The translations under genes and the position numbers were made by a program. From NCBI GenBank assembly GCA_964474085.1, contig CAYYRJ010000011.1:11347-75346 (forward strand): 64,000 nucleotides of DNA, given 5' to 3'. How positions within the stretch are numbered: the first letter of the stretch is position 1; each line of letters opens with the position of its first letter. This DNA is from an uncultured Planctomycetales bacterium (GTDB lineage Bacteria > Omnitrophota > Gorgyraeia > Zapsychrales > JANLHA01). The notes under the pieces are model-generated. The model did no database searches. It saw only the letters and a program-made list of their open reading frames with translations, and was not told the origin of the DNA. Shown here piece by piece: positions 19,471 to 44,632 of this stretch.

Positions 19471-19524
19471 GAAATATTTTTGTCTTTAAAAGATGGGGAA
19501 AATACTACTAAAAATGCGTTATCT

Positions 19525-19560
19525 CGATATATATTTACCGACGGGTGGGGGTGTCAAAGA
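19525..19560 (-). promoter_or_regulatory. Sigma70-like promoter for nrtR: -35 TTGACA (plus 19552-19557), 18-nt spacer, AT-rich -10
   Basis: Reverse strand reads ctcTTTGACAcccccacccgtcggtaaaTATATAT. Same cassette as at int and hsdR. Confidence 0.5.
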
Positions 19561-19721
19561 GGGGATTTTCCCAAAAGATACTACCCCTCACTCTAAGTTT
19601 CTTTTGGGGATATGTTGATACATGGGCCGGGAGTCCCAAAAGGGGGATTTCGGTTTTAGAATCGTTTTGTTAAAGAGGCCTTTATTAAGAAATTTCAGAA
19701 TACTCCAAATTTATTCCACTT

Positions 19722-32442: not shown

Positions 32443-32689
32443 TGGGGTATATGCTCTCTGATCTTTAACTTACTACGGGCGATGTATTCGCCGATTTATC
32501 ATGATACCTTCCGGGTCATCCACTGCCACCAACTTTAAAGCCCGGTTACCTATATCCGGGCCAAGTATTCAACGGTGTATGTATCTGCTGAGATCATTAA
32601 AATTCCGCTATGGGCTATTCAAAATATTCAGTATTGTAACATTGTTACCTTTTTCCTGCCACCATTTCCATCCGATAAGTCTATTGCCT

Positions 32690-32722
32690 CATTATATATA
32701 AACCACCGTACAGGGGTGTCAA
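32690..32722 (-). promoter_or_regulatory. Sigma70-like promoter for the hsdRMS-kinase operon: TTGACA (plus 32717-32722), about 17-nt spacer, ATATATAAT
   Basis: Reverse strand reads ctTTGACAcccctgtacggtggtttATATATAATgag. Shares the ggggtgtcaa -35 context with the nrtR and int promoters. Confidence 0.5.
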
Positions 32723-32748
32723 AGGGAGGATTTTGGTATGCCAAAAAT

Positions 32749-32834: not shown

Positions 32835-32870
32835 AAACCCAGAATCCTCGTCGGAAACTGGGTTTTTATT
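32835..32870 (+). terminator. Possible rho-independent terminator: aacccag, 15-nt loop, ctgggtt, then TTTATTT
   Basis: Stem-loop plus T-run seen in sequence. Lies between the two islands. Confidence 0.3.
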
Positions 32871-32917
32871 TGGTTGCGGGGACAGGATTTGAACCTGTGA
32901 CCTTCAGGTTATGAGCC
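32871..32917 (-). repeat. 47-nt partial copy of the tRNA-Met 3' half (anticodon loop to CCA), the left att direct repeat of the tRNA-integrated island
   Basis: tggttgcggggacaggatttgaacctgtgaccttcaggttatgagcc is identical to 44556-44602 inside the intact tRNA. Confidence 0.85.
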
Positions 32918-33036: not shown

Positions 33037-34998
33037 TTACTGTCGAATTCTAGACGCATTTTGACAACTTGCCTTATAATTACCCCATAACTTTTTCAAA
33101 GGCCAAAAAATAAAATATAATATTGGTAGCGCAGCTAAAACATCACGAATTATTTGCTGATAATCCCCACAATTAAATATTTTACAATAACCCCACGCTA
33201 CCAACAAGGAACCCATCCCACAAATAGGCAATGTCTTAAGCAGTCCCCGCAGCAAAGCACCTAAAGCATCCCTTTTAATTTTAGCCGCCTTAAAATTGTT
33301 TAATTCTTTTTCTCGTTCTACTGATTTAATTCGTTCTTGATTAGTTTCTTCTTCCGCTCGCTTGATTCTTTCTTTAGCATCAGACAACTGCTCAGAAACC
33401 TCTATAGTGCTTGCTTGATACAATCTATTAATCCTCAAGGCCAAATTGCTGTCGTGCGCTTTTCCTTCTAATCTCGCCTTTGCAATCTCTTTAACGAGTT
33501 TCTTAACTTCCTCCGAAGGTAAGTCAGCGGCCCTTTCATTAATTTTATCCAACAATTGTAAATCCTGCAAAATATAAGTACTGCTTGAAGGCAAACATTC
33601 ATTGAGTAATAGCTTGGATAATAATGGGGCAAAATTGGTAGCATCAGAAATTGGTTCCGAATTATTTAGGGCAAGAATCTCTATCAATACCGAAACAGAT
33701 AGCAGTTTGGGCAACTCATGGTGCGGAGTTTGTTCTAACACAGATGCTTGCAAAGACCTATCCAAACTTAGTATCCAAGCTTTCTCATTTTTCCCCCTTA
33801 AGTAATCAACAGTATGAATTAAACAAGTATCGTGATTTAACGCCGCCTGCCCTTTTTTCCCTTTCCATTTCGCACGAAATTTTAAGGCAAATTTTTGTAT
33901 TTGATTTTTTAAATGTTCATCCTGCTCAGATTTTATTTGAGTATCTAGAAATTCTTTATCGTCTTCCAAAACTATATTAAGCCCGTCGGGCAATGTCCGA
34001 GGTATATTTAAAAGAGAATCGAAGAATCTGTTATAATCTTCTTCATTTTTACAACCTCTATCTCGTGCAGTCGCAATAAAATCGTCTCTGACATCCTGAA
34101 TCACTTCATCATCAAAAGCTTTAATTACATGAATCGCATCCCCTCGTTTTGCGTTCAAAGCTCGGGCGTATTCCTCTGTCGTGCAATGCAGATAAATTAA
34201 TTTTGAGTTAAGAAACTTGAATGCACCTTCTAAGGCCTTGATTGATTGCCACAATCTACTACTTTCCAGCGATAAAGCGAACAAAACATTTGTGTCAAAA
34301 ATGAATGTTGAATTACTTAATTCTTCAATTGTAATAGGGTCTATCCCAATGTCAGCAGCCACTAAACGTGCTGAAAACATCGCCTGACTCATCAAAAATA
34401 AATATTGTTGGTCTCGAATATTATCACTTGAGAGGAAACTTACGAAACCAGCAACTAACGCCTGCTTATGCTGCTCTAGTTTATTATTCTTTATGGAATT
34501 GGAAAGCAACTGTTCAATCGTCTGTGAGGAAGCCGCAATTCTTCTATTACCTTTACTCGATATTTTAATCCATTCATCACAATAAAATCCCAGGAAATCC
34601 GCAGAAGACTCTCTGAACCACATTTTAAGTATCTTTTTCGGGAGGGTGGCTGGGAAATGGCGCTCTAAAACTTCCCGCAACAGGCCTCTTTCTGTATTGA
34701 TTTCCCTACTAATGTCTTTGCGACTATTATTCTCTAACTGCCATGTCTTCCCATTCGTTCTAACTTTGCCAGATTGTTGTAAAAATTGAAGCCCGTCAAT
34801 AACCAATTCCGATGAGACACTTTTGTTCCCAATCATTTTTGCCGACTCAGACACCAACTGTTGCACCTCAACGGGCGATTCTATGGAATACATAACTTTT
34901 GCTATCAGCTCAGCAAAAGCTAAAGTTTTAAGTGGTTTTGCAGAAGTGCCATATTTCAAATTTACAGTTACAAGCTGTCTCGTGTTAAACTGCATCAT
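33037..34998 (-). CDS. Large hypothetical protein (653 aa) with an internal PIN-like motif and C-terminal transmembrane helices
   Basis: Internal FIFDTNVLFALSLESS resembles a PIN-domain first acidic motif. C-terminal hydrophobic segments (LPICGMGSLLVAWGY...ALPILYFIFWPL). Confidence 0.35.
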   Translation of the reverse strand: MMQFNTRQLVTVNLKYGTSAKPLKTLAFAELIAKVMYSIESPVEVQQLVSESAKMIGNKSVSSELVIDGLQFLQQSGKVRTNGKTWQLENNSRKDISREINTERGLLREVLERHFPATLPKKILKMWFRESSADFLGFYCDEWIKISSKGNRRIAASSQTIEQLLSNSIKNNKLEQHKQALVAGFVSFLSSDNIRDQQYLFLMSQAMFSARLVAADIGIDPITIEELSNSTFIFDTNVLFALSLESSRLWQSIKALEGAFKFLNSKLIYLHCTTEEYARALNAKRGDAIHVIKAFDDEVIQDVRDDFIATARDRGCKNEEDYNRFFDSLLNIPRTLPDGLNIVLEDDKEFLDTQIKSEQDEHLKNQIQKFALKFRAKWKGKKGQAALNHDTCLIHTVDYLRGKNEKAWILSLDRSLQASVLEQTPHHELPKLLSVSVLIEILALNNSEPISDATNFAPLLSKLLLNECLPSSSTYILQDLQLLDKINERAADLPSEEVKKLVKEIAKARLEGKAHDSNLALRINRLYQASTIEVSEQLSDAKERIKRAEEETNQERIKSVEREKELNNFKAAKIKRDALGALLRGLLKTLPICGMGSLLVAWGYCKIFNCGDYQQIIRDVLAALPILYFIFWPLKKLWGNYKASCQNASRIRQ

Positions 34999-35080: not shown

Positions 35081-35911
35081 TTAATTATTGGTTCCCATCG
35101 TCGCTTCTTGATGAGCGATTTTTGGAACCATCTCATTCATCGTATAATGAACAAACCAATCTCCTAACTCTGTCAACACATACTCATCCTTATCATCAAA
35201 TGCGGATTTTACTTGTCCTGTCCTTCTGGGGCGTCTTCGTTTAGGCAGGAAATTACCCGAGGCATCTGTTTCCCTGTGTTGTCTGATAACGTGCCCGACA
35301 CTCAAATCGTGAATCAATTTCTTAAAGAGGTCTGCCTCGGCTGAATTTTCCCTGACTCTATTCCCATGAATTTCTTGCCACATTTCATATCTCGTTAATC
35401 CTGGGTCTTTATAAATTAACTGAACTATTTTAAAATGGCCTTCGCTGTATTGGTCAATCCACTCAATAAACATCCGTAATATATCGTCGCCACAAATTTT
35501 CTGGGCACCCGCAGCATTACAAAGAAGGTTGCGGATTAAAATCCTTTTTTCTTCGCTCTCAGCGGCACTCCAATCCCTGAAGCATTTCTTTATCAACTTA
35601 AGATATTCAGGACTTTGAATTCGTTCTTGAACTCGTTCATCGTTTCTATCAAGTCGAAGCATTACCTCCATCAAAGTTTTTCCAATTTCTTTAATTTCAT
35701 CTTCTTGAAGTTTAAGCCAAGAAGCAAATATCTTATTAAATCTTTCTTGCTCTGCCTCAGACCATGCCCCTGCACCTCCACCAATGGCCCCACCAGCATA
35801 AGGAATTAAGCCTCCTAAAAAAGCGAGCGCAAATCTGGCAACTTTAGAACCCGCACCCGAATTAAGGGCGTCTTCCATTTCTTTTTTAACATCATCATTC
35901 GGTTGAGACAT
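35081..35911 (-). CDS. Hypothetical protein (276 aa) with a Gly/Ala-rich N-terminal segment
   Basis: ORF. GGLIPYAGGAIGGGAGAWS near the N-terminus. No catalytic motifs recognised. Confidence 0.35.
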   Translation of the reverse strand: MSQPNDDVKKEMEDALNSGAGSKVARFALAFLGGLIPYAGGAIGGGAGAWSEAEQERFNKIFASWLKLQEDEIKEIGKTLMEVMLRLDRNDERVQERIQSPEYLKLIKKCFRDWSAAESEEKRILIRNLLCNAAGAQKICGDDILRMFIEWIDQYSEGHFKIVQLIYKDPGLTRYEMWQEIHGNRVRENSAEADLFKKLIHDLSVGHVIRQHRETDASGNFLPKRRRPRRTGQVKSAFDDKDEYVLTELGDWFVHYTMNEMVPKIAHQEATMGTNN

Positions 35912-35922
35912 CTTTTATCCGC

Positions 35923-36297
35923 TCATTTCTTGTAATATTGTTTTATTCTTTCCCTGTCTTCAACTTCCTTATCTGTCTTGAAATAAATCTCGACAAACTC
36001 AATCAAATCCTCGTCGGGAAAATAGGCATAAATAATTCTTATGCCGCTTTTGACTCCTCGACCTTTTAATGCTTTGCATGCAAACTTTGTGACTTTGAGA
36101 ATGTGCGGATATTCAATTCCTAAGTTGTCTATCCGTTCAATGCCGTCATAATTTTGCTGCCCCAATTTATGGTACATTTTCAAGGCAGCATCAATTAAAT
36201 TTTCTATGTCTTCTTCTAGTGTCCGAAATTTCTTGAGTAATTTTTTTAATTCTCGGTCAAACTCAGGAAGATTCCTTCTCTGCTTGAATACCGTCAT
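35923..36297 (-). CDS. Putative small toxin (124 aa) cognate to the upstream Panacea-domain antitoxin. A RelE/ParE-like fold is possible.
   Basis: Overlaps the 3' end of the antitoxin gene by 35 nt. Basic, with a C-terminal IIYAYFPDEDLIEFVEIYFKTDK beta-strand pattern reminiscent of RelE/ParE-superfamily toxins. Confidence 0.35.
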   Translation of the reverse strand: MTVFKQRRNLPEFDRELKKLLKKFRTLEEDIENLIDAALKMYHKLGQQNYDGIERIDNLGIEYPHILKVTKFACKALKGRGVKSGIRIIYAYFPDEDLIEFVEIYFKTDKEVEDRERIKQYYKK

Positions 36298-37075
36298 CGT
36301 TGTAGCTCCTCACAGAGTAAGGCTTCTGCCTGTAAAACGCCTTTTCATAATCAATGACTTGGCCGTCTTCTGTCGTCATCCAGGGAACATCACCATGAGA
36401 GTAGTCACTAATAACAGTTGCACTAAGATGCGACAGTCTTTCTAAAACCTCGTCAATAAGTTTAATCTCGTGTGCCTTGAATTTACTTAAGTCTGGTTCT
36501 TTGAGAGGCAAATATTTTGTTTGGCTATATTGAAAATATTGATTCTGAACTTTTACCAACTCGTGATTATTTTCCATTTCTTTCACGATTTCCAGGAACT
36601 CAACAGGCAATGGGCCAAAGTGATATTTTGTATATGTGGCACCTATCAACTGTTCTTCATATTTTTCATAAAAATCAAAATCAATAAAATAAAGCAGTTT
36701 ACACAAAACAGTTTCGCCAATATTAGGCCTTGACCCAACTTTGTTTAAAACGTAGAGCAAAACTTCCTTAAACCTGTCTACTTTTTTTTGCGGGACGTTG
36801 ATACGAATTTCTTGCTTCTCTGGGGTTATCTGTTCTTTTTGCAAATCAACTTTTATTGTGGCCTTTAAGTCGAGAAGTGTATCCGTAGGGATACAGAATA
36901 AATCGGATAATTTTTTAATATCTTCTGCTGTAATTTTCCGCTCACCATTCTCAATTTGAGACAAAGAAGCTCTGTTAATATCCAAGAATTGGGCTGCTTT
37001 TTCTTGCGAGAGCCCTTTTTCTTCTCGGAGAGTCTTGATTCTTTGGCCTAAATTCTTATAAAATTGCTCGCTCAT
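36263..37075 (-). CDS. XRE-family HTH plus Panacea (DUF4065/SocA-like) domain antitoxin (PanA-like)
   Basis: N-terminal HTH LSQEKAAQFLDINRASLSQIENGERKITAEDIKKLSDLF. The C-terminal domain has the Panacea signature CKLLYFIDFDFYEKYEEQLIGATYTKYHFGP. Confidence 0.55.
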   Translation of the reverse strand: MSEQFYKNLGQRIKTLREEKGLSQEKAAQFLDINRASLSQIENGERKITAEDIKKLSDLFCIPTDTLLDLKATIKVDLQKEQITPEKQEIRINVPQKKVDRFKEVLLYVLNKVGSRPNIGETVLCKLLYFIDFDFYEKYEEQLIGATYTKYHFGPLPVEFLEIVKEMENNHELVKVQNQYFQYSQTKYLPLKEPDLSKFKAHEIKLIDEVLERLSHLSATVISDYSHGDVPWMTTEDGQVIDYEKAFYRQKPYSVRSYNDDGIQAEKESS

Positions 37076-37424
37076 ATTTTCTACTCCTGCACCTATAAAT
37101 TAGCACATGTTAGTTTTGTTGTCAATAGATTGTTAGGAATGTTAACAGAATGCCCTTTAATTGAGCGGAAATGGCCTTTCCTGCCACGATTTTCTTCTAA
37201 ACCAGGGTTGGGTGCCCCTCAAGGCGCAAAACGCCTCTAGGAACCGATTTTCGACCTTTTGAGCTTTTGAACAAAGAACCTAAATTCCAGGTTCTCTTTT
37301 GCGTCATTGCAACCCCTACCAGACCTTTAAGCCACTAAGGAGGGTCAAGGTTGTGGGCAAACTGAGTGAATGATTTAGCCGTTAAAGGAAAATTTTTCAC
37401 GAAAGTGAAATAGTTACTCTGTGA

Positions 37425-37512
37425 CAGAACTGTATTACAGTTCTGGAACTGAGTAACTAGATACTGTTCCAGTATCTAGTTTTACAAGTACCAGTCCTAG
37501 AATAGGACTGGT
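37425..37512. repeat. Three adjacent perfect palindromes: cagaactgta-t-tacagttctg (37425-37445, nested in 9-bp outer arms tagttactc/gagtaacta), aactagatactg-ttc-cagtatctagtt (37455-37481), and accagtccta-gaa-taggactggt (37490-37512)
   Basis: Read directly from the sequence. They sit in a roughly 1-kb non-coding stretch between the TA operon and the serine recombinase gene. Confidence 0.6.
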
Positions 37513-38056
37513 CAAGTATTAGGATGATATCATTATTAGCAGTAGTTTATTAACTGTATATAGTATATTAAGTATAATCCCTGCTCTTTTGATTTTCAAA
37601 AAGTGGCTCAAACAACCTACAACCAATTGTGGAGTGTTTATATTCAGGGAAGGCAAAGAAAGCGGGCCTATCGGGGCCCAAAAGTTCCCACAAAAAGCCC
37701 GTCAAAAACCTGGTTATCGTGGTTTTCGCCCTCTCCGCAAAATTCGCAAAAAAGCCCTGTTTTTATATAAAAATCGTCACGGATGAAGAAAAATCGGCCA
37801 AAAGTCACAAGCTGAAAAATCCCGTAAACTGATACACTTTCGGCGCACTCAATATTTTTATATTTAAGACTCAGGGTTTACTTATGTTTTGATGGGTTAT
37901 TGAAACGGGATGCTCAGAAAAAGCCCAGCGCAATCACTGCTTTCCTTCGAGGCAAACAGGCTAATAGACGCAGGCCCATAGTTACTGGCCGTTTAGAATT
38001 AGCCAAAAATGCTCAAATGTTATATGCTTTAGTCAATCAAAGGGAGGATAGATACA

Positions 38057-38859: not shown

Positions 38860-39261
38860 TTAAACGCCTTTGAGTACTTCAAATTCAGTCTCAGTGAGAT
38901 ATTTAAAAGATTGCGGAATGACAAAATCGGGGAACACTTCTCTGGGGTTAATATGCTTCTTCAACGATACAAATTTCTTTATCTCAATTGAGATACCAAA
39001 CGCATTGTCTTGATAATAAGAAAAAAATTCCTCTTTTTCAATCCCAGAGAACTTCCAGAATTTATTCCAAAGTTTCTCGGGATGGTCTTTGTGTATTCTT
39101 TTAACTTCAAAATAACCGATAATCTTTTGATAAGGTGAACTGGCATAGACAACAACTCGCTTAACTTTCTGTCCAATATTTCCCTTCCTAAATTCATATC
39201 TTTTTTTGCCATCCAAAATAGCAAATGCAAATTTTGGTTTAATTGGTAAGAATACATTCAT
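38860..39261 (-). CDS. ASCH-domain (PUA-like fold) protein
   Basis: 133 aa. FAILDGKKRYEFRKGNIGQKVKRVVVYASSPYQKIIGYFEV matches the ASCH beta-barrel with its conserved GxK/YE motifs. Confidence 0.5.
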   Translation of the reverse strand: MNVFLPIKPKFAFAILDGKKRYEFRKGNIGQKVKRVVVYASSPYQKIIGYFEVKRIHKDHPEKLWNKFWKFSGIEKEEFFSYYQDNAFGISIEIKKFVSLKKHINPREVFPDFVIPQSFKYLTETEFEVLKGV

Positions 39262-40741
39262 CCTTGAATTTCTCCGCTAAGGTTACGAATGAATTATGAC
39301 TTATAGCGGTAATCGACTCAAGGTGATTGTTGATTATTTTACGATTGGACAAATCCTGAAAGCTCATACCAGCGTCGAGATGGCCAATTTGTCGGAATAA
39401 AATCGCCAAGATTTCTTTCTTGCACATTTTCTGTATGCTCTCCAAAGGGAAAACAGTTCTTTTCCCTACAAATGCGCTAACCTCATCAGCGTCAGAACTT
39501 CTTTTAATATTTTCTATAATCCCTAAAGTAGTTATTTTCTTTAAATCTTGCGACCTATAAAACAATATTAAATCTCCAACTTTCAAATCTTTTCTCTTGT
39601 TGTTGCATAGATAGGCTTTCTTTATGGAGTTTCCAGAAGCGTAACTTTCCGTAGTTGGGAATAATTCCATCTGGGGCATTTTATAATCAGGAAATAATAA
39701 CGTGTGCCAATCAGGAATGATGGGAATGATATATTTATTCTCCGCTTTCTTAACATAAAAGTATGGCGAATATTTAACATAAAAATCCATTTTGCTAAAT
39801 ATATTCGTTTCTTTAACATCGGGCTTTGCAAACTCTTTAATGAGGATTTTTTCTCCTCTTGCCGTCAAGCGAGTGTCAAGCTGAAATCCAAACTCAATAA
39901 ATAAATCAATGAGCAAAGAGTGCTTTTCAAATACAGTGACATAGGCTTTTTCAAATCTATTTTCGATACAATACATAAATAAATTTTTTATCAATAATTC
40001 GCCCACCTTGTTACCTTGAGCTTGCTCAGAAACTTTAAAGGTACAAACCTTCATAACTTTTCCTGAATATAGCTTACAGTTACTACTTTCGTCCTTGTGT
40101 ATACAGATGCCACCTATATTTTTGCTGCGATTAAGGTAGTATACCCAAGCGTCCCGTCCGTCTTTCTGGCATTTGACAAACCATTTTTCAAATGAAGGCG
40201 AATCTTTTACCTCGGGGTAATCATCCTTTAGTGAATCTAATATTGAATCATCTTTATTTAGGTTATAGAGCTTTTCATTATAAATATGCGGAATCTCTAC
40301 CTGAATCTTTTCAAAAAGTGCCTTAAGAAAAGAAAGCCCTTCAGGTATTGTATAAACATTCTCAATAGAACATCTTCGAGCTTTCGCATGTAAGCCAGCG
40401 TCTTCGGAAATTAAGACAGCAATACAATTTTGTCTTAGGGCGTATAAAATATACGCATCTACCAAATCTCTTGGGTTGCTCACATTACAATTTATTTCTT
40501 TAAGGAAATCTATGGGCGGTTCTGGCGGGGATTCCAATTCCTCATATTTCTTTATCCTCGATAGCATCTCATTTTTTCTTTTAACATCTAAGTCTCTTTC
40601 AATATCTTCCCTCGATTTAGGATGGATACGCAATTGACAATGTTTCATTGAAACTTTATGAAACTCAGCAAATTCGTTTGCAATTTCTTTATTAGAGTCT
40701 TCAAGCTGAATGAATATGTTTGTGTCGATTAAGATTCTCAT
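39239..40741 (-). CDS. Multi-domain protein: an N-terminal PIN nuclease domain, a central GNAT acetyltransferase domain and a C-terminal uncharacterised (possibly PUA/EVE-like) domain
   Basis: MRILIDTNIFI is the PIN first acidic motif. The GNAT motif A region is QGNKVGELLIKNLFMYCIENRFEKAYVTV. C-terminal LKVGDLILFYRS. Overlaps the ASCH gene by 23 nt. Confidence 0.5.
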   Translation of the reverse strand: MRILIDTNIFIQLEDSNKEIANEFAEFHKVSMKHCQLRIHPKSREDIERDLDVKRKNEMLSRIKKYEELESPPEPPIDFLKEINCNVSNPRDLVDAYILYALRQNCIAVLISEDAGLHAKARRCSIENVYTIPEGLSFLKALFEKIQVEIPHIYNEKLYNLNKDDSILDSLKDDYPEVKDSPSFEKWFVKCQKDGRDAWVYYLNRSKNIGGICIHKDESSNCKLYSGKVMKVCTFKVSEQAQGNKVGELLIKNLFMYCIENRFEKAYVTVFEKHSLLIDLFIEFGFQLDTRLTARGEKILIKEFAKPDVKETNIFSKMDFYVKYSPYFYVKKAENKYIIPIIPDWHTLLFPDYKMPQMELFPTTESYASGNSIKKAYLCNNKRKDLKVGDLILFYRSQDLKKITTLGIIENIKRSSDADEVSAFVGKRTVFPLESIQKMCKKEILAILFRQIGHLDAGMSFQDLSNRKIINNHLESITAISHNSFVTLAEKFKDECILTN

Positions 40742-40750
40742 ATTACTGCG

Positions 40751-41278
40751 CTACAGTCGCCCTTTCAGAAAACTAATAATCCCCACCTCATCATATGAAT
40801 TGAACTTTATCATCTGGATATTTAACTCTTTTGCTACTTGCTCCGCATATTCCGACTCTATTTGTTGTTGGGAGGTTATCAAATCAATGTCATAATTTTT
40901 CGAGTCTCTATTCTTAAGATTCTTGATAATTTCATCTGGGCGGTTAATCAATAAAACAATCATAGTCGGACTAATTTCTCGCAAATATTGAATAGGCACC
41001 CTTTCAATCTCATATTGATGACCTATTAAGGTTAAATGTCCGTCCAGCAGCAATTTATTCTCCGATACATATTTTTTCAGTCCATTTATCAAGATATTTT
41101 GATTATCACACACGCCCAAAACCCTTTTGTCATTGTCAGAATTTATTATTTCTTTTTCACCGTTGATTATATCTCCTGCGTTTAGATATACGAATCCGAA
41201 CTCATCGCATATTTTTTTACAACGACTTGTCTTTCCAACTCCATGAACACCTGTAATAAATATAAAATTTCTTTCCAT
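40751..41278 (-). CDS. P-loop NTPase / nucleoside(nucleotide)-kinase-like protein (AAA_33-type)
   Basis: Walker A FITGVHGVGKTS at the N-terminus. Small size (175 aa) typical of kinase-like P-loop proteins. Confidence 0.45.
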   Translation of the reverse strand: MERNFIFITGVHGVGKTSRCKKICDEFGFVYLNAGDIINGEKEIINSDNDKRVLGVCDNQNILINGLKKYVSENKLLLDGHLTLIGHQYEIERVPIQYLREISPTMIVLLINRPDEIIKNLKNRDSKNYDIDLITSQQQIESEYAEQVAKELNIQMIKFNSYDEVGIISFLKGRL

Positions 41279-41357
41279 AATGTAGCCCCAATAAAAAAAG
41301 CAACCCTCAGATGAGAATTGCCTATAAAGTCACTAAACTGCTTCCGAACTTATGAAG

Positions 41358-42602
41358 CTACTCATCGACTTCAGGAATCTCCTCCTCAGAAGGAAGCTCA
41401 ATAGAAATCTTACCATGAACCTCATCATGGCATTTAGAGCATAAAATCATTATATTGGGAATCTCGGTTTTCCCACCATCAGCATATCGAGTTTTGTGAT
41501 GATACTCGGGTTCTTTATAATCTTTGAATGGCTTATTACAAATTTGACAACGTGGATTCTTAGCAAAGACGGCAATCTTATCCTCGTCGGATATTTGACG
41601 TTTTTCATCCAATTCAGCAAGGGGATATTTCTTAAGGAATTCCTGCCTAAGAATATTTTTTCTAAGGTTAATGATTTTTTCAGACCACCCGCCACGCACA
41701 TTGTCATAAAATCTCTGATAATTTGCGTTCGACCGCCGAAAATCTTCCGTATAAACTTTACCGTGAAAGTCTTCAATAAATGCTCTGATTAAACCTTCCT
41801 TCCCAACAAGTGAATAGCTCAAACGAAGGTCTTTAACCATTCCGTAGACGGCGAGCACCCAAGCATGTTTTTCCAAATAATGATATTCTCCTGGGTTGGG
41901 AGGGAAACATTCTGTCAAAAAATTCAAATTACTTATGACAGCTTTATAGTCTTTATCATCCTTCGCGATGTCTTTAATTTCATCAAAAAAATTATAAAGC
42001 TCATTTGAACCACACTGTTTTGCGCCGTATTTTTCATAAAACAGAATTCTTGCTGCATCAGGATATATACCGTAACGTTCTTTGTACACGCCAATAGATT
42101 TATCCATAAACGGATGGTGCGCTATTTCCCGCATTCGCTCAACAATTGTGCCAGCCTTTGCATTTAGTCTTTCTCCAAGCTGAAGAGGCTTACCACGCTG
42201 TAAACGTGAAAAGATTAGACGGACTCTCTCGTCGTCATAATCTTCCATTATCCAGAAACGCAATTCATAATTCAGGAAAGCATCTCTCTGATTATCATCT
42301 ATTGGATTCTCACTATTAAAGGTTTTCCCGTGGTTCTGAACGCCAGAAAATTTTTTATTTAATTTTAATTTGTTATCATGAAACTTAAAAATAGCACTTA
42401 AGCGTTGCTGTCCGTCCACAATGTAAGAAACCTTTTCTCCTGATTTATAATTTAAGAAAAACAGGGGCATAGGCTCCCCTTTTAGTATTGTGTCAATGAG
42501 ACATTGATTATCTTCATTCGACCAAGCATCCGATGGTCTTTGATAATTCAAATCAACCTTATACTTGTGACGGTTATTAACTATTTCTTGTATAGTTGCC
42601 AT
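41358..42602 (-). CDS. DUF262 (ParB/GmrSD N-terminal nuclease-like, DGQQR motif) fused to a C-terminal HNH endonuclease. A type IV (modification-dependent) restriction-like defense enzyme.
   Basis: SYIVDGQQRLSAIFKF is the DUF262 signature. The C-terminal CQICNKPF...YHHKTRYADGGKTEIPNIMILCSKCHDEVH is an HNH motif. Confidence 0.65.
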   Translation of the reverse strand: MATIQEIVNNRHKYKVDLNYQRPSDAWSNEDNQCLIDTILKGEPMPLFFLNYKSGEKVSYIVDGQQRLSAIFKFHDNKLKLNKKFSGVQNHGKTFNSENPIDDNQRDAFLNYELRFWIMEDYDDERVRLIFSRLQRGKPLQLGERLNAKAGTIVERMREIAHHPFMDKSIGVYKERYGIYPDAARILFYEKYGAKQCGSNELYNFFDEIKDIAKDDKDYKAVISNLNFLTECFPPNPGEYHYLEKHAWVLAVYGMVKDLRLSYSLVGKEGLIRAFIEDFHGKVYTEDFRRSNANYQRFYDNVRGGWSEKIINLRKNILRQEFLKKYPLAELDEKRQISDEDKIAVFAKNPRCQICNKPFKDYKEPEYHHKTRYADGGKTEIPNIMILCSKCHDEVHGKISIELPSEEEIPEVDE

Positions 42603-42619
42603 AACAACTCCTCACCAAA

Positions 42620-43534
42620 TCAAAAATGCTTACAAGCATCTAAATCTAACAAAATTGGTAAATTAACTCTCTCGTTCTTTGTACACCCAGGCGTATCAGC
42701 TTTCTTAATGTCATTTATTAAATTTATTATTTCAGTATTTTCTAACGCTCGATTCTTAATTTCTAAACTTGGAAAGATTACCATTGAGAACCAGCCATCG
42801 AGAGGCAACAGATATTCTGGCTTATTTTCCCCAGGTAGATTGTCAGGTTTTAAGAACATCTCCTCGGGTCTTTTTTTAATAACACGATTTTTAATCGCCT
42901 CATTCATAGTGGTCTTAATTTCTTCAGAGAAAACAATTCTCCACTCAGATTCATCAAAAATATCATATCGAATATGGCCTCTGTCATCTCTCTCAAACAT
43001 TTTCTTCGCAAACAATAACATCCATTGGTAATAATTTTGATTCGGTAAATTCTTGTTGGCTTTGGGAAGAAACAAATTTTGCATCTCGGGTTGGACATAA
43101 ATCATGGGGCATCCCAATCTATCAAATAGAAAAAATCTTTTAACTCCTATACCTAATCTTCCGAATTTAACGGCATGAGCTCTTGAATCAGACAGCTTTA
43201 ATTCAGTAAAACAGGTTCTGGCAACTAACGGCCTATTTATCTTTTGGCCATCAAGAATCAGTTCTTCATCCTTAGTCATCCATAGCCCATATTTCAAAAT
43301 CGAAACTAATCTTTGTATATATTCTTCAATTAAGTCGTTATTCTTAATTTCACAATAGGGGCGATGATACCAGTCAGGGTCATGTTTGTTATCAATATCT
43401 TTCCCAGTCCAGTGTATCAAGAAATCTGAATGATTAACTGAGTGCATATGCTCGGCATTCTGTAAATGTTTGATATTACTTAAGTTATTTATTTTAACGT
43501 TTAAATATGTTTTGAACAAGCAAAACTTACCCAC
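42620..43534 (-). CDS. Hypothetical protein (304 aa), possibly abortive-infection (Abi)-like
   Basis: Only weak resemblance (SDFLIHWTG, FTELKLSDSRAHAVKFGRLGIG) to Abi/DUF2971-type proteins. Placement in a defense island. Confidence 0.25.
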   Translation of the reverse strand: MGKFCLFKTYLNVKINNLSNIKHLQNAEHMHSVNHSDFLIHWTGKDIDNKHDPDWYHRPYCEIKNNDLIEEYIQRLVSILKYGLWMTKDEELILDGQKINRPLVARTCFTELKLSDSRAHAVKFGRLGIGVKRFFLFDRLGCPMIYVQPEMQNLFLPKANKNLPNQNYYQWMLLFAKKMFERDDRGHIRYDIFDESEWRIVFSEEIKTTMNEAIKNRVIKKRPEEMFLKPDNLPGENKPEYLLPLDGWFSMVIFPSLEIKNRALENTEIINLINDIKKADTPGCTKNERVNLPILLDLDACKHF

Positions 43535-43544
43535 CCAATAATTT

Positions 43545-44444
43545 TTATATGTTTAATGGGTGCTTTTCCACCGCTCCTCTTAACTGCTGCTCATCGCATC
43601 CCAAATAAAATCTCGCCGTGGTGGAAATATCAGCATGACCAACCAGAAGTTGAATGTCTCGCAGATTAACACCATTCCTAAGCATCAATGTGCAGAAGGT
43701 ATGCCGCAATATTTGCGGGCAAACTTTCTTTGGAATCTTGGCCTTCTTGCGGAGTTCTCGGAACATGTCATAAAGCCCCTGGGTGGTAAGTGCTGAACCT
43801 CGCCTATTCGTCGAGACAAAGAGATTATCTACCGTCCGCTCGGGGCGAACCTTCAAATAGTCCTTCACGAATCCTATAAGCGTTTCGTTTAAAGGGATGA
43901 GCCGTTCTTTGTTCTTGGCTGAAACTTTGATATATCCTCGCTCAAGATTTAAGTCCCGCATTTTGAGATTAAGAAGCTCTTTCTTCCGTATCCCCGTTAA
44001 TAAAAACATGGCAATAATCGCCACGTCTCTATACCACTGGGATTTATAAAACCGCTTCATATCCATGCAGGCCCGTAATAATTTCCTGGCCTCGTCTTCA
44101 TCCAGAAACTCGGGAAGCCTGCGGGCTATTTTGGGCTTTTCAATGCGGTCAAATGGATTATTGGGGAGGTGATTGCGCTTAACCAGGAAGGTACAAAAAG
44201 CCCTCAAAGCCCGTATCAGATTTAGAATCGTTCTGGGTGAGTTGCCTGACTGTCGCTGGTGAATAAGAAAATCTCGCAGGGTTTCAACGCTGAGGGCGTC
44301 TAAAGTAGCGGGTAATACTCGACGACGAAGGTATTTATAGAAGCAGCGAATACTGCCGTCATACCACAGGATAGTAGTAGGTTCTAAGCACCTTTCTAAG
44401 ATTGAGTAGCTGGTGAATTCTTTGTAGAGCTCGGGGAGTTTCAT
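43545..44444 (-). CDS. int: Tyrosine recombinase/integrase (XerC/D-like size) of the tRNA-Met island
   Basis: C-terminal catalytic region LRHTFCTLMLRNGVNLRDIQLLVGHADISTTARFYL (H-R-H/Y context). Adjacent to the tRNA target. Confidence 0.85.
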   Translation of the reverse strand: MKLPELYKEFTSYSILERCLEPTTILWYDGSIRCFYKYLRRRVLPATLDALSVETLRDFLIHQRQSGNSPRTILNLIRALRAFCTFLVKRNHLPNNPFDRIEKPKIARRLPEFLDEDEARKLLRACMDMKRFYKSQWYRDVAIIAMFLLTGIRKKELLNLKMRDLNLERGYIKVSAKNKERLIPLNETLIGFVKDYLKVRPERTVDNLFVSTNRRGSALTTQGLYDMFRELRKKAKIPKKVCPQILRHTFCTLMLRNGVNLRDIQLLVGHADISTTARFYLGCDEQQLRGAVEKHPLNI

Positions 44445-44555
44445 TTGCCGTTGGGCTTACAGGCAACATGCTGTCTTCCAACGGTTAGTGGGAAAGGGGT
44501 GGAGCAGGTTGGTAGCTCGTCGAGGGCTACTTGTTCCTACTCCACCTTTTCGTAT

Positions 44556-44632
<77 letters not shown>

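Follow-up and report, generated by a model that had tools for sequence, protein, structure and literature searches.

The 64,000-nucleotide stretch of contig CAYYRJ010000011.1 analysed here (the window) carries a three-gene locus that, by profile matches and gene content, is a complete, intact member of a known family, the (PIN)-GNAT-EVE/ASCH/AAA_17 operons, listed by PADLOC as candidate system PDC-M11 and known from computational prediction. The genes encode an AAA_17 P-loop kinase (K), a 500-amino acid (aa) PIN-GNAT-EVE fusion protein (A) and an ASCH protein (B); we use these letters for the window copies and their homologues alike. We propose that the locus is a toxin-antitoxin (TA)-like conflict module in which the fusion protein would be the effector, ASCH would neutralise it, possibly by erasing an acetyl mark, and the kinase would be an optional accessory, a reading to which we give an even chance of being right. 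The initial annotation of the window, made before any database search, took the three-gene combination to be undescribed and saw no obvious antitoxin partner. Neither statement survives, because the PDC-M11 profiles, the operons described by Bell et al. 2020 (PMC7641849) and a phage homologue annotated as a toxin-antitoxin pair, GevT/GevA, all bear on the same genes. Bell et al. 2020, who credit the first description to Iyer et al. 2013, reported a GNAT-EVE fusion that often has an N-terminal PIN domain, with ASCH encoded in almost all such operons and an AAA_17 ATPase in many; the PIN-containing form associates with restriction-modification (RM) systems of type I and with other defence systems in host defence islands, and no module had been experimentally characterised at that time (PMC7641849).

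The three genes are co-directional on the minus strand and encode proteins of 175, 500 and 133 aa, respectively. The kinase gene (40751-41278) ends 9 nt before the start of the fusion gene (39239-40741), which in turn overlaps the ASCH gene (38860-39261) by 23 nt (39239-39261), an arrangement that reads as translational coupling; a GGAG sequence lies about 13 nt 5' of the ASCH ATG. Open reading frame (ORF) calling thus reproduced the gene layout and the overlap given in the initial annotation. The same 23-nt A/B overlap recurs in GevT/GevA and in three loci from other genomes (L019, L030 and L054). A terminator-like hairpin with an 11-bp stem and a T-run (41298-41323, minus strand; a consensus match only) lies between the kinase gene and the neighbouring DUF262-HNH gene, and suggests that the triad is its own transcription unit. 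A promoter scan yielded 21 matches compared with 18.5 in shuffled sequences, that is, no enrichment, so we claim no promoter.

The 500-aa protein matches the PADLOC profile PDC-M11A (PDLC04421) with an E-value of 1.3e-133 over its full length (aa 1-485 against positions 1-477 of 486). It has 495 homologues at E<=1e-5 and at least 525 relatives in genomes, and its full-length AF2 model is of high confidence (pLDDT 93.2, pTM 0.86), which together place the family far beyond chance. Three domains can be delineated, all on the minus strand: a PIN nuclease domain (aa 1-148; 40298-40741), a GNAT acetyltransferase domain (about aa 150-305; 39827-40294) and an EVE/PUA-like reader domain (about aa 318-500; 39242-39790).

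The PIN domain of the window copy has no Pfam support, so the assignment was tested by other routes. In an alignment of 114 homologues, D6, N8, E14, H40, D95 and D114 are invariant, and positions 46 and 50 (D46 and D50 in the window copy) are acidic in at least 90% of the sequences, so that the acidic PIN active site is present; the first aspartate is D6, not D5 as initially annotated. Of 23 N-terminal domains taken from relatives, 11 match PIN_3 or PIN_12. Sequence-profile searches against PDB sequences returned only marginal matches for the PIN domain (HARP RNase P, 0.07) and for the EVE domain (the EVE-like proteins 2ar1 and 1zce, 0.45-1.1), which made fold comparison necessary. The full-length Foldseek search was dominated by GNAT matches and did not show the PIN domain, which was therefore modelled alone; it is most similar to the VapC tRNA/rRNA endonucleases.

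The GNAT domain is recognised by Pfam Acetyltransf_1 (PF00583) at aa 166-286, with 29.2 bits against a cutoff of 20.7, and its Foldseek matches include NatD (2e-7), many other GNATs and the GNAT toxin structure 7byy. Its motif A is a conserved variant (G243 100%, G247 99%, E248 99%, L249 100%), and K231 and G285 are invariant. For the C-terminal domain, Pfam EVE is sub-threshold in the window copy (aa 380-485; 17-19.7 bits against a cutoff of 23; E 0.006, or 9e-4 for the domain alone) and matches 14 of 20 C-terminal domains of family members (best 8e-7). In fold, the domain matches the PUA-like structure of the Zymomonas mobilis ASCH protein (ZmASCH; Foldseek, TM 0.75-0.81), a comparison that does not tell EVE from other PUA-like subfamilies. 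Y377, F394, Y395 and F449 are invariant in this domain, and the GxKxxExR motif of ASCH proteins is absent from its sequence. The PIN, GNAT and PUA/EVE-like domains named in the initial annotation all stand, as do the P-loop kinase and the ASCH protein; PHROGs holds both A and B as families of unknown function.

The window ASCH protein, encoded next to A on the same strand, matches PDC-M11B (PDLC04424) at 7.8e-48 and Pfam ASCH (PF04266) at 24.1 bits against a cutoff of 21.2; ZmASCH is its closest PDB relative (E 1.4e-8, full length). It contains the octapeptide G18-K-K20-R-Y-E23-F-R25, an instance of the catalytic GxKxxExR signature, which was overlooked when the protein was initially annotated as a reader only. 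Among 80 ASCH partners of A proteins, K20, E23, R25 and Y39 are conserved in 100% and G18 in 96%; conservation across P116-Q117-S118 is 90-97%, with S118 at 90%. K20 and E23 match the Lys/Glu dyad of TthASCH, EOLA1 and TRIP4 which, according to a 2026 preprint (10.64898/2026.02.27.708502), is essential for deacetylation of N4-acetylcytidine (ac4C) by TthASCH, EOLA1 and TRIP4-ASCH. The same preprint states that all 19 ASCH proteins tested, including ZmASCH, deacetylated tRNA ac4C in vitro. The strong conservation of the catalytic signatures of PIN, GNAT and ASCH indicates that all three are probably active enzymes.

The third protein is a nucleoside monophosphate (NMP) kinase-like P-loop protein with matches to AAA_17 (9e-17) and AAA_18 (3.5e-9); its closest PDB relatives are an archaeal-type adenylate kinase (7owe, 8e-7) and UMP/CMP kinases (2e-6). 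The family motifs G10-x-H12-x-V14-G15-K16 and L78-D79-G80-H81 are conserved.

The linkage of these genes was followed by scanning GTDB with a single genome for each species; of the at least 525 loci, the best 80, from many bacterial and archaeal phyla, were examined. An ASCH homologue adjoins A in 78 loci, and the other two loci stop at a contig edge, so that every one of the 78 testable loci shows the linkage. In 70 loci, the ASCH gene is downstream of A in the same orientation and in most of these overlaps the preceding gene by 11-28 nt; it is upstream in 8, mostly from Bdellovibrionales and Oligoflexia. A kinase of the same family as that of the window is present in 23 of the 80 loci and is next to ASCH every time: 20 of these kinase genes follow the ASCH gene on its strand, one is convergent (L025), and two are joined to ASCH in single proteins of 310 aa (L038) and 341 aa (L039). 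Conversely, all four kinase homologues with sampled context adjoin a PDC-M11B-type ASCH gene and a GNAT-EVE gene. We found three gene orders, namely A-B-K in the survey, K-A-B in the window, in an 83%-identical triad within an unrelated mobile-element context (L083) and in a Stutzerimonas locus (L091), and B-A-K on a Rhizobium etli plasmid (L089), where the genes encode HTH-ASCH, PIN-GNAT-EVE and kinase, in this order. Fusion of ASCH to an XRE-type HTH domain is seen in alpha-proteobacteria.

The different gene orders, together with the fusions and the fissions described below, are strong evidence of a functional module, in agreement with the initial annotation, which had treated the three genes as one unit and had suggested a survey of their co-occurrence. 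A and B form its obligate core, with the kinase as a dedicated but optional component that probably works on the ASCH side. The ASCH protein is thus the natural candidate for the missing antitoxin: it is obligate, usually translationally coupled, annotated as an antitoxin in the phage homologue and, in alpha-proteobacteria, fused to HTH.

Several variants were observed along the way. In Enterobacter and Proteus prophage regions (L092, 4547-5948; L094, 4546-5947), the module is split further: GNAT (156 aa) and EVE (193 aa) each have a gene of their own, side by side and ahead of the ASCH gene, the kinase gene is convergent, and phage portal, GPA and putative AbiC genes lie nearby. In a metagenome-assembled genome of Clostridiales (L090, 3613-5972), an ASCH-kinase pair is convergent with the GNAT-EVE gene, behind which lies another ASCH gene, from a different subfamily. 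The neighbours of an A-B pair that lacks the kinase (L084, 3156-8265) encode a thymidylate kinase, a fusion of nucleoside deoxyribosyltransferase and methyltransferase, and an SNF2 helicase; this may be a cluster for nucleotide modification or for defence. Methanothermobacter phage psiM100 (AF301375.1, 8233-9696) encodes a homologue of the full-length PIN-GNAT-EVE protein (27% identity, 99% coverage), in a region of this archaeal phage annotated 'inserted fragment IFa'.

The TA-like reading rests on the combination of an acetyltransferase with an obligate, coupled partner of the acetyl-amidohydrolase type, on the GevT/GevA annotation and on the HTH-ASCH fusions. The integrative island, the RM genes beside the module in other genomes and its copies on phages and plasmids, all described below, also speak for a conflict function. 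Under this scenario, the EVE/PUA-like domain of the effector would dock on nucleic acid, perhaps modified and most likely RNA or tRNA, the GNAT domain would move an acetyl group from acetyl-CoA onto the docked substrate, and the VapC-like PIN domain would cleave RNA. The translationally coupled ASCH would keep the effector harmless in uninfected cells, acting enzymatically by hydrolysing the N-acetyl mark, so that the two proteins would form a writer-eraser pair, and direct binding may contribute as well. The NMP-kinase-like protein would be a dedicated, dispensable accessory working with ASCH. The gene structure, the domains, the intact catalytic motifs, the obligate A-B linkage, the facultative linkage and fusion of the kinase and the mobile-element and RM surroundings are seen in the sequences, whereas we infer that the fusion protein is toxic, that ASCH is its antitoxin, what the substrate is, that an acetyl mark is erased and that phages are resisted. 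The RNA-directed toxin or defence function suggested in the initial annotation seems reasonable in this light.

A more specific version of this proposal is a nucleic-acid acetylation immune system in which GNAT would install N4-acetylcytosine or another N-acetyl base on EVE-selected RNA or tRNA, ASCH would erase it in healthy cells, and loss or inhibition of ASCH upon infection would unleash acetylation along with PIN cleavage. We hold this version to be possible but on the doubtful side. If true, it would be the first physiological context to explain ASCH deacetylases in prokaryotic conflict loci, and the nucleotide products would be dealt with by the kinase, which some genomes encode as a fusion with ASCH.

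Several observations weigh against the TA-like reading. In the GNAT domain of the candidate effector, motif A departs from the canonical Q/R-x-x-G-x-G/A, and no conserved catalytic Tyr, a feature named in the initial annotation, is evident in motif B, where F281 occupies the usual position. As ASCH proteins generally deacetylate ac4C in vitro, this activity may not be system-specific, and ZmASCH, the closest characterised ASCH, is encoded by an orphan gene with no GNAT-EVE neighbour, unlike the window gene. Bell et al. 2020 leaned towards a DNA-binding or regulatory function for ASCH (PMC7641849). The defence-related enrichment of the gene neighbourhoods is modest, amounting to about a fifth of immediate neighbours. 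The searchable literature yielded no experiments on any PIN-GNAT-EVE or GNAT-EVE protein and no paper behind the names GevT and GevA, which are labels of the record annotation only.

Much of the same evidence is compatible with a classical type II TA or abortive-infection system, a reading discussed by Bell et al. (PMC7641849), in which GNAT would acetylate the amino group of aminoacyl-tRNA, as do AtaT, TacT and KacT, EVE would select tRNAs by their modified bases, PIN would degrade RNA, and ASCH would neutralise by binding alone and, when fused to HTH, repress transcription. The 7byy match, the VapC-like PIN fold, the toxin and antitoxin annotations of GevT and GevA, the close coupling of A with B and the fusions of HTH to ASCH, the last two being typical of type II antitoxins, all fit this scenario. 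However, it leaves the complete conservation of K20, E23 and R25 in 80 ASCH partners and the ASCH-kinase fusions unexplained, and RHH/DUF1778 proteins, the known antitoxins of GNAT toxins, are absent: the Pfam search detected none in the genes neighbouring the window GNAT, where the partner is ASCH. We consider this scenario conceivable, with the balance tilted clearly against it.

As anticipated in the initial annotation, the module is found in a mobile, defence-related setting. It is carried on an 11.7-kb integrative island that lies between the two copies of a perfect direct repeat of 48 nt. The distal copy (32870-32917) forms one attachment (att) site, and the proximal copy (44555-44602) coincides with the 3' portion of a tRNA-Met gene (44555-44632, minus strand; ARAGORN, Rfam). 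Beside the tRNA gene lies a tyrosine integrase gene (43545-44444; Pfam Phage_integrase, 1.7e-34). GC content is 33-39% in most 1-kb windows of the island, below that of the flanks, and an Rfam scan of the island matched the tRNA alone.

Upstream of the triad, the gene at 41358-42602 (minus strand) encodes a protein with DUF262 (GmrSD_N, 2e-13) and a canonical HNH domain (PF01844, 1e-10) and matches PADLOC NsnA at 1e-19; it is adjoined by a weakly supported AbiGi-like gene (42620-43534, minus strand). The DUF262-HNH protein had initially been annotated as a type IV restriction enzyme that recognises modified DNA, next to the triad. It shares DUF262 with the GmrSD enzymes but has HNH in place of DUF1524, so that GmrSD-like is the more accurate term, and functional coupling is unsupported, with the terminator-like hairpin lying in between.

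This neighbourhood bears on a second alternative, which Bell et al. attribute to Iyer et al. 2013 and in which the module would be a restriction-like system directed at modified DNA: EVE and ASCH would read modified bases of phage DNA, and GNAT would acetylate DNA or a hypermodified base, alongside RM. Across other genomes, RM subunits are the most common neighbours; among 132 immediate neighbours, type I specificity subunits (7-8), N6 methylases, Eco57I-type and ResIII/HsdR proteins, Fic proteins and integrases are the families seen most often. Many EVE domains read 5-methylcytosine or 5-hydroxymethylcytosine in DNA as parts of type IV enzymes, and ASCH is fused to HsdS in Methanohalophilus (PMC7641849); in the window, the DUF262-HNH gene adjoins the triad. 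Nevertheless, we regard this alternative as unlikely, given that VapC-type PIN domains are RNases, that ZmASCH degrades single-stranded RNA, with no DNase activity reported in the abstract of its description (PMC5615036), and deacetylates tRNA (10.64898/2026.02.27.708502), and that a terminator-like hairpin stands between the triad and the DUF262-HNH gene.

The island location is also compatible with a function in counter-defence or competition between mobile genetic elements, where the module would serve its carrier through addiction, by stabilising the island, or by shielding it from host RM, the role that Bell et al. suggested for phage forms lacking PIN. Homologues are present on 33 plasmids and in phages, including the immunity region of lambdoid phages and P2-like prophage regions, and the L083 triad lies in a different mobile-element context. 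The genes that prophages and islands carry at such positions typically act against phages, as in the rexAB slot of lambda. Furthermore, the PIN-containing form is reported with host defence islands (PMC7641849), and service to the mobile element is compatible with a TA function and not exclusive of it. As a separate explanation, we consider it improbable.

The remaining island cargo includes a serine recombinase and a 270-aa protein with HTH_3 and a SocA/Panacea antitoxin-type domain (36263-37075, minus strand), the gene of which overlaps a downstream ORF of 124 aa (35923-36297, minus strand) with no family match; these two are probably a Panacea-type TA pair with an unclassified toxin. Two orphan ORFs, 33037-34998 (minus strand, 653 aa) and 35081-35911 (minus strand, 276 aa), have no match in Pfam, NCBIfam, PADLOC or PHROGs; a PIN-like motif, FIFDTNVLFAL, and a C-terminus that is hydrophobic can be read by eye from the sequence of the 653-aa protein. 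The interval of about 1 kb between the SocA-type and serine recombinase genes (37076-38056) contains no ORF of at least 100 aa and no Rfam match. A 47-nt imperfect direct repeat (74% identity; 19523-19569 and 32688-32734) has one copy just beyond the distal att site.

Compared with the PDC-M11 operons of Bell et al., the window triad has the same domain architecture, the same partner genes and the same defence, RM and mobile-element context. Its proteins are 31-39% (A) and 25-34% (kinase) identical to those of the surveyed members, and it differs in gene order, K-A-B as opposed to A-B-K in the 23 kinase-bearing loci of the survey, which makes it a slightly unusual member of the family. In the searchable literature, PDC-M11 is named solely as a predicted system in an O157:H7 strain. 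Although the family is widespread, with at least 525 genomic copies in bacteria and archaea in addition to phage and plasmid copies, and comparative genomics has pointed to it on three occasions, the accessible literature contains no published mechanism. The window locus alone leaves existing knowledge unchanged; the interest is in the mechanism of the family and in a testable writer-eraser hypothesis, given that ASCH ac4C enzymology and the motif invariant in every ASCH partner turn a guilt-by-association prediction into a concrete writer-eraser TA hypothesis. The window contributes a three-gene version that is compact and intact, lies on an island with clear boundaries and would be a good candidate for cloning.

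An annotated counterpart is the pair from the lambdoid Escherichia phage PhiR47_2 (PV340567.1), in which a PIN-less homologue, 'GevT toxin', and an overlapping ASCH gene, 'GevA antitoxin', lie between cI and kil. GevT and GevA match the PDC-M11 profiles at 2e-133 and 7e-52, respectively; the window A (aa 156-492) is 28% identical to GevT (BLASTP 2e-30), and the window ASCH is 40% identical to GevA (BLASTP 5e-27). The two pairs share both profile matches and the overlap length, but GevT lacks the 148-aa PIN domain of the window protein, and the phage-borne pair has no kinase.

ZmASCH (PDB 5GUQ/5GUS; Kim et al. 2017) is itself a PDC-M11B family member (3e-29). It binds nucleic acids and cleaves single-stranded RNA in an Mg-dependent manner, activities for which Tyr47 and Ser128 matter (PMC5615036), and these residues correspond to Y39 (100%) and S118 (90%) of the window ASCH. 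We also considered ZmASCH as a possible GNAT-EVE operon partner (L086, 4825-6447) and rejected it: its upstream neighbour, which encodes 375 aa, is not related to GNAT-EVE (BLASTP E 2.8, no Pfam or PADLOC match). The EVE-like nuclease of the H-NS/Madara preprint was likewise set aside as unrelated.

With the ASCH ac4C amidohydrolases, namely E. coli YqfB, Thermus thermophilus TthASCH, human EOLA1 and TRIP4-ASCH, the window protein shares the ASCH fold and the GxKxxExR ('GKER') octapeptide, which make it a predicted ac4C deacetylase. These are stand-alone housekeeping or salvage enzymes, unlike the coupled ASCH of the window, and a search of PDB sequences with the latter gave no match to ASCH of the YqfB, TthASCH, EOLA1 or TRIP4 type at E<=10. 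VapC is a stand-alone PIN toxin with a VapB-type antitoxin encoded upstream, and AtaT, TacT and KacT are GNAT toxins of type II TA systems; in the window, PIN and GNAT are fused with EVE in one protein, a VapB-type antitoxin is absent, and the gene upstream of the PIN fusion encodes the kinase.

The resemblance to TmcA and NAT10, which combine a helicase-type ATPase, GNAT_acetyltr_2 and a tRNA-binding domain, is a parts-list analogy only (a P-loop protein, GNAT and a PUA-like domain), with no Pfam match to these families at E<=0.1. DarT/DarG is likewise comparable in logic only: there, the mark that a toxin covalently places on nucleic acid is taken off again by an enzymatic antitoxin, and the pair serves in phage defence. 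The window module shows no homology to this system, with neither an ADP-ribosyltransferase nor a macrodomain, and its acetyl chemistry and eraser are hypothetical; should they be real, it would be the first acetyl-base counterpart of DarTG.

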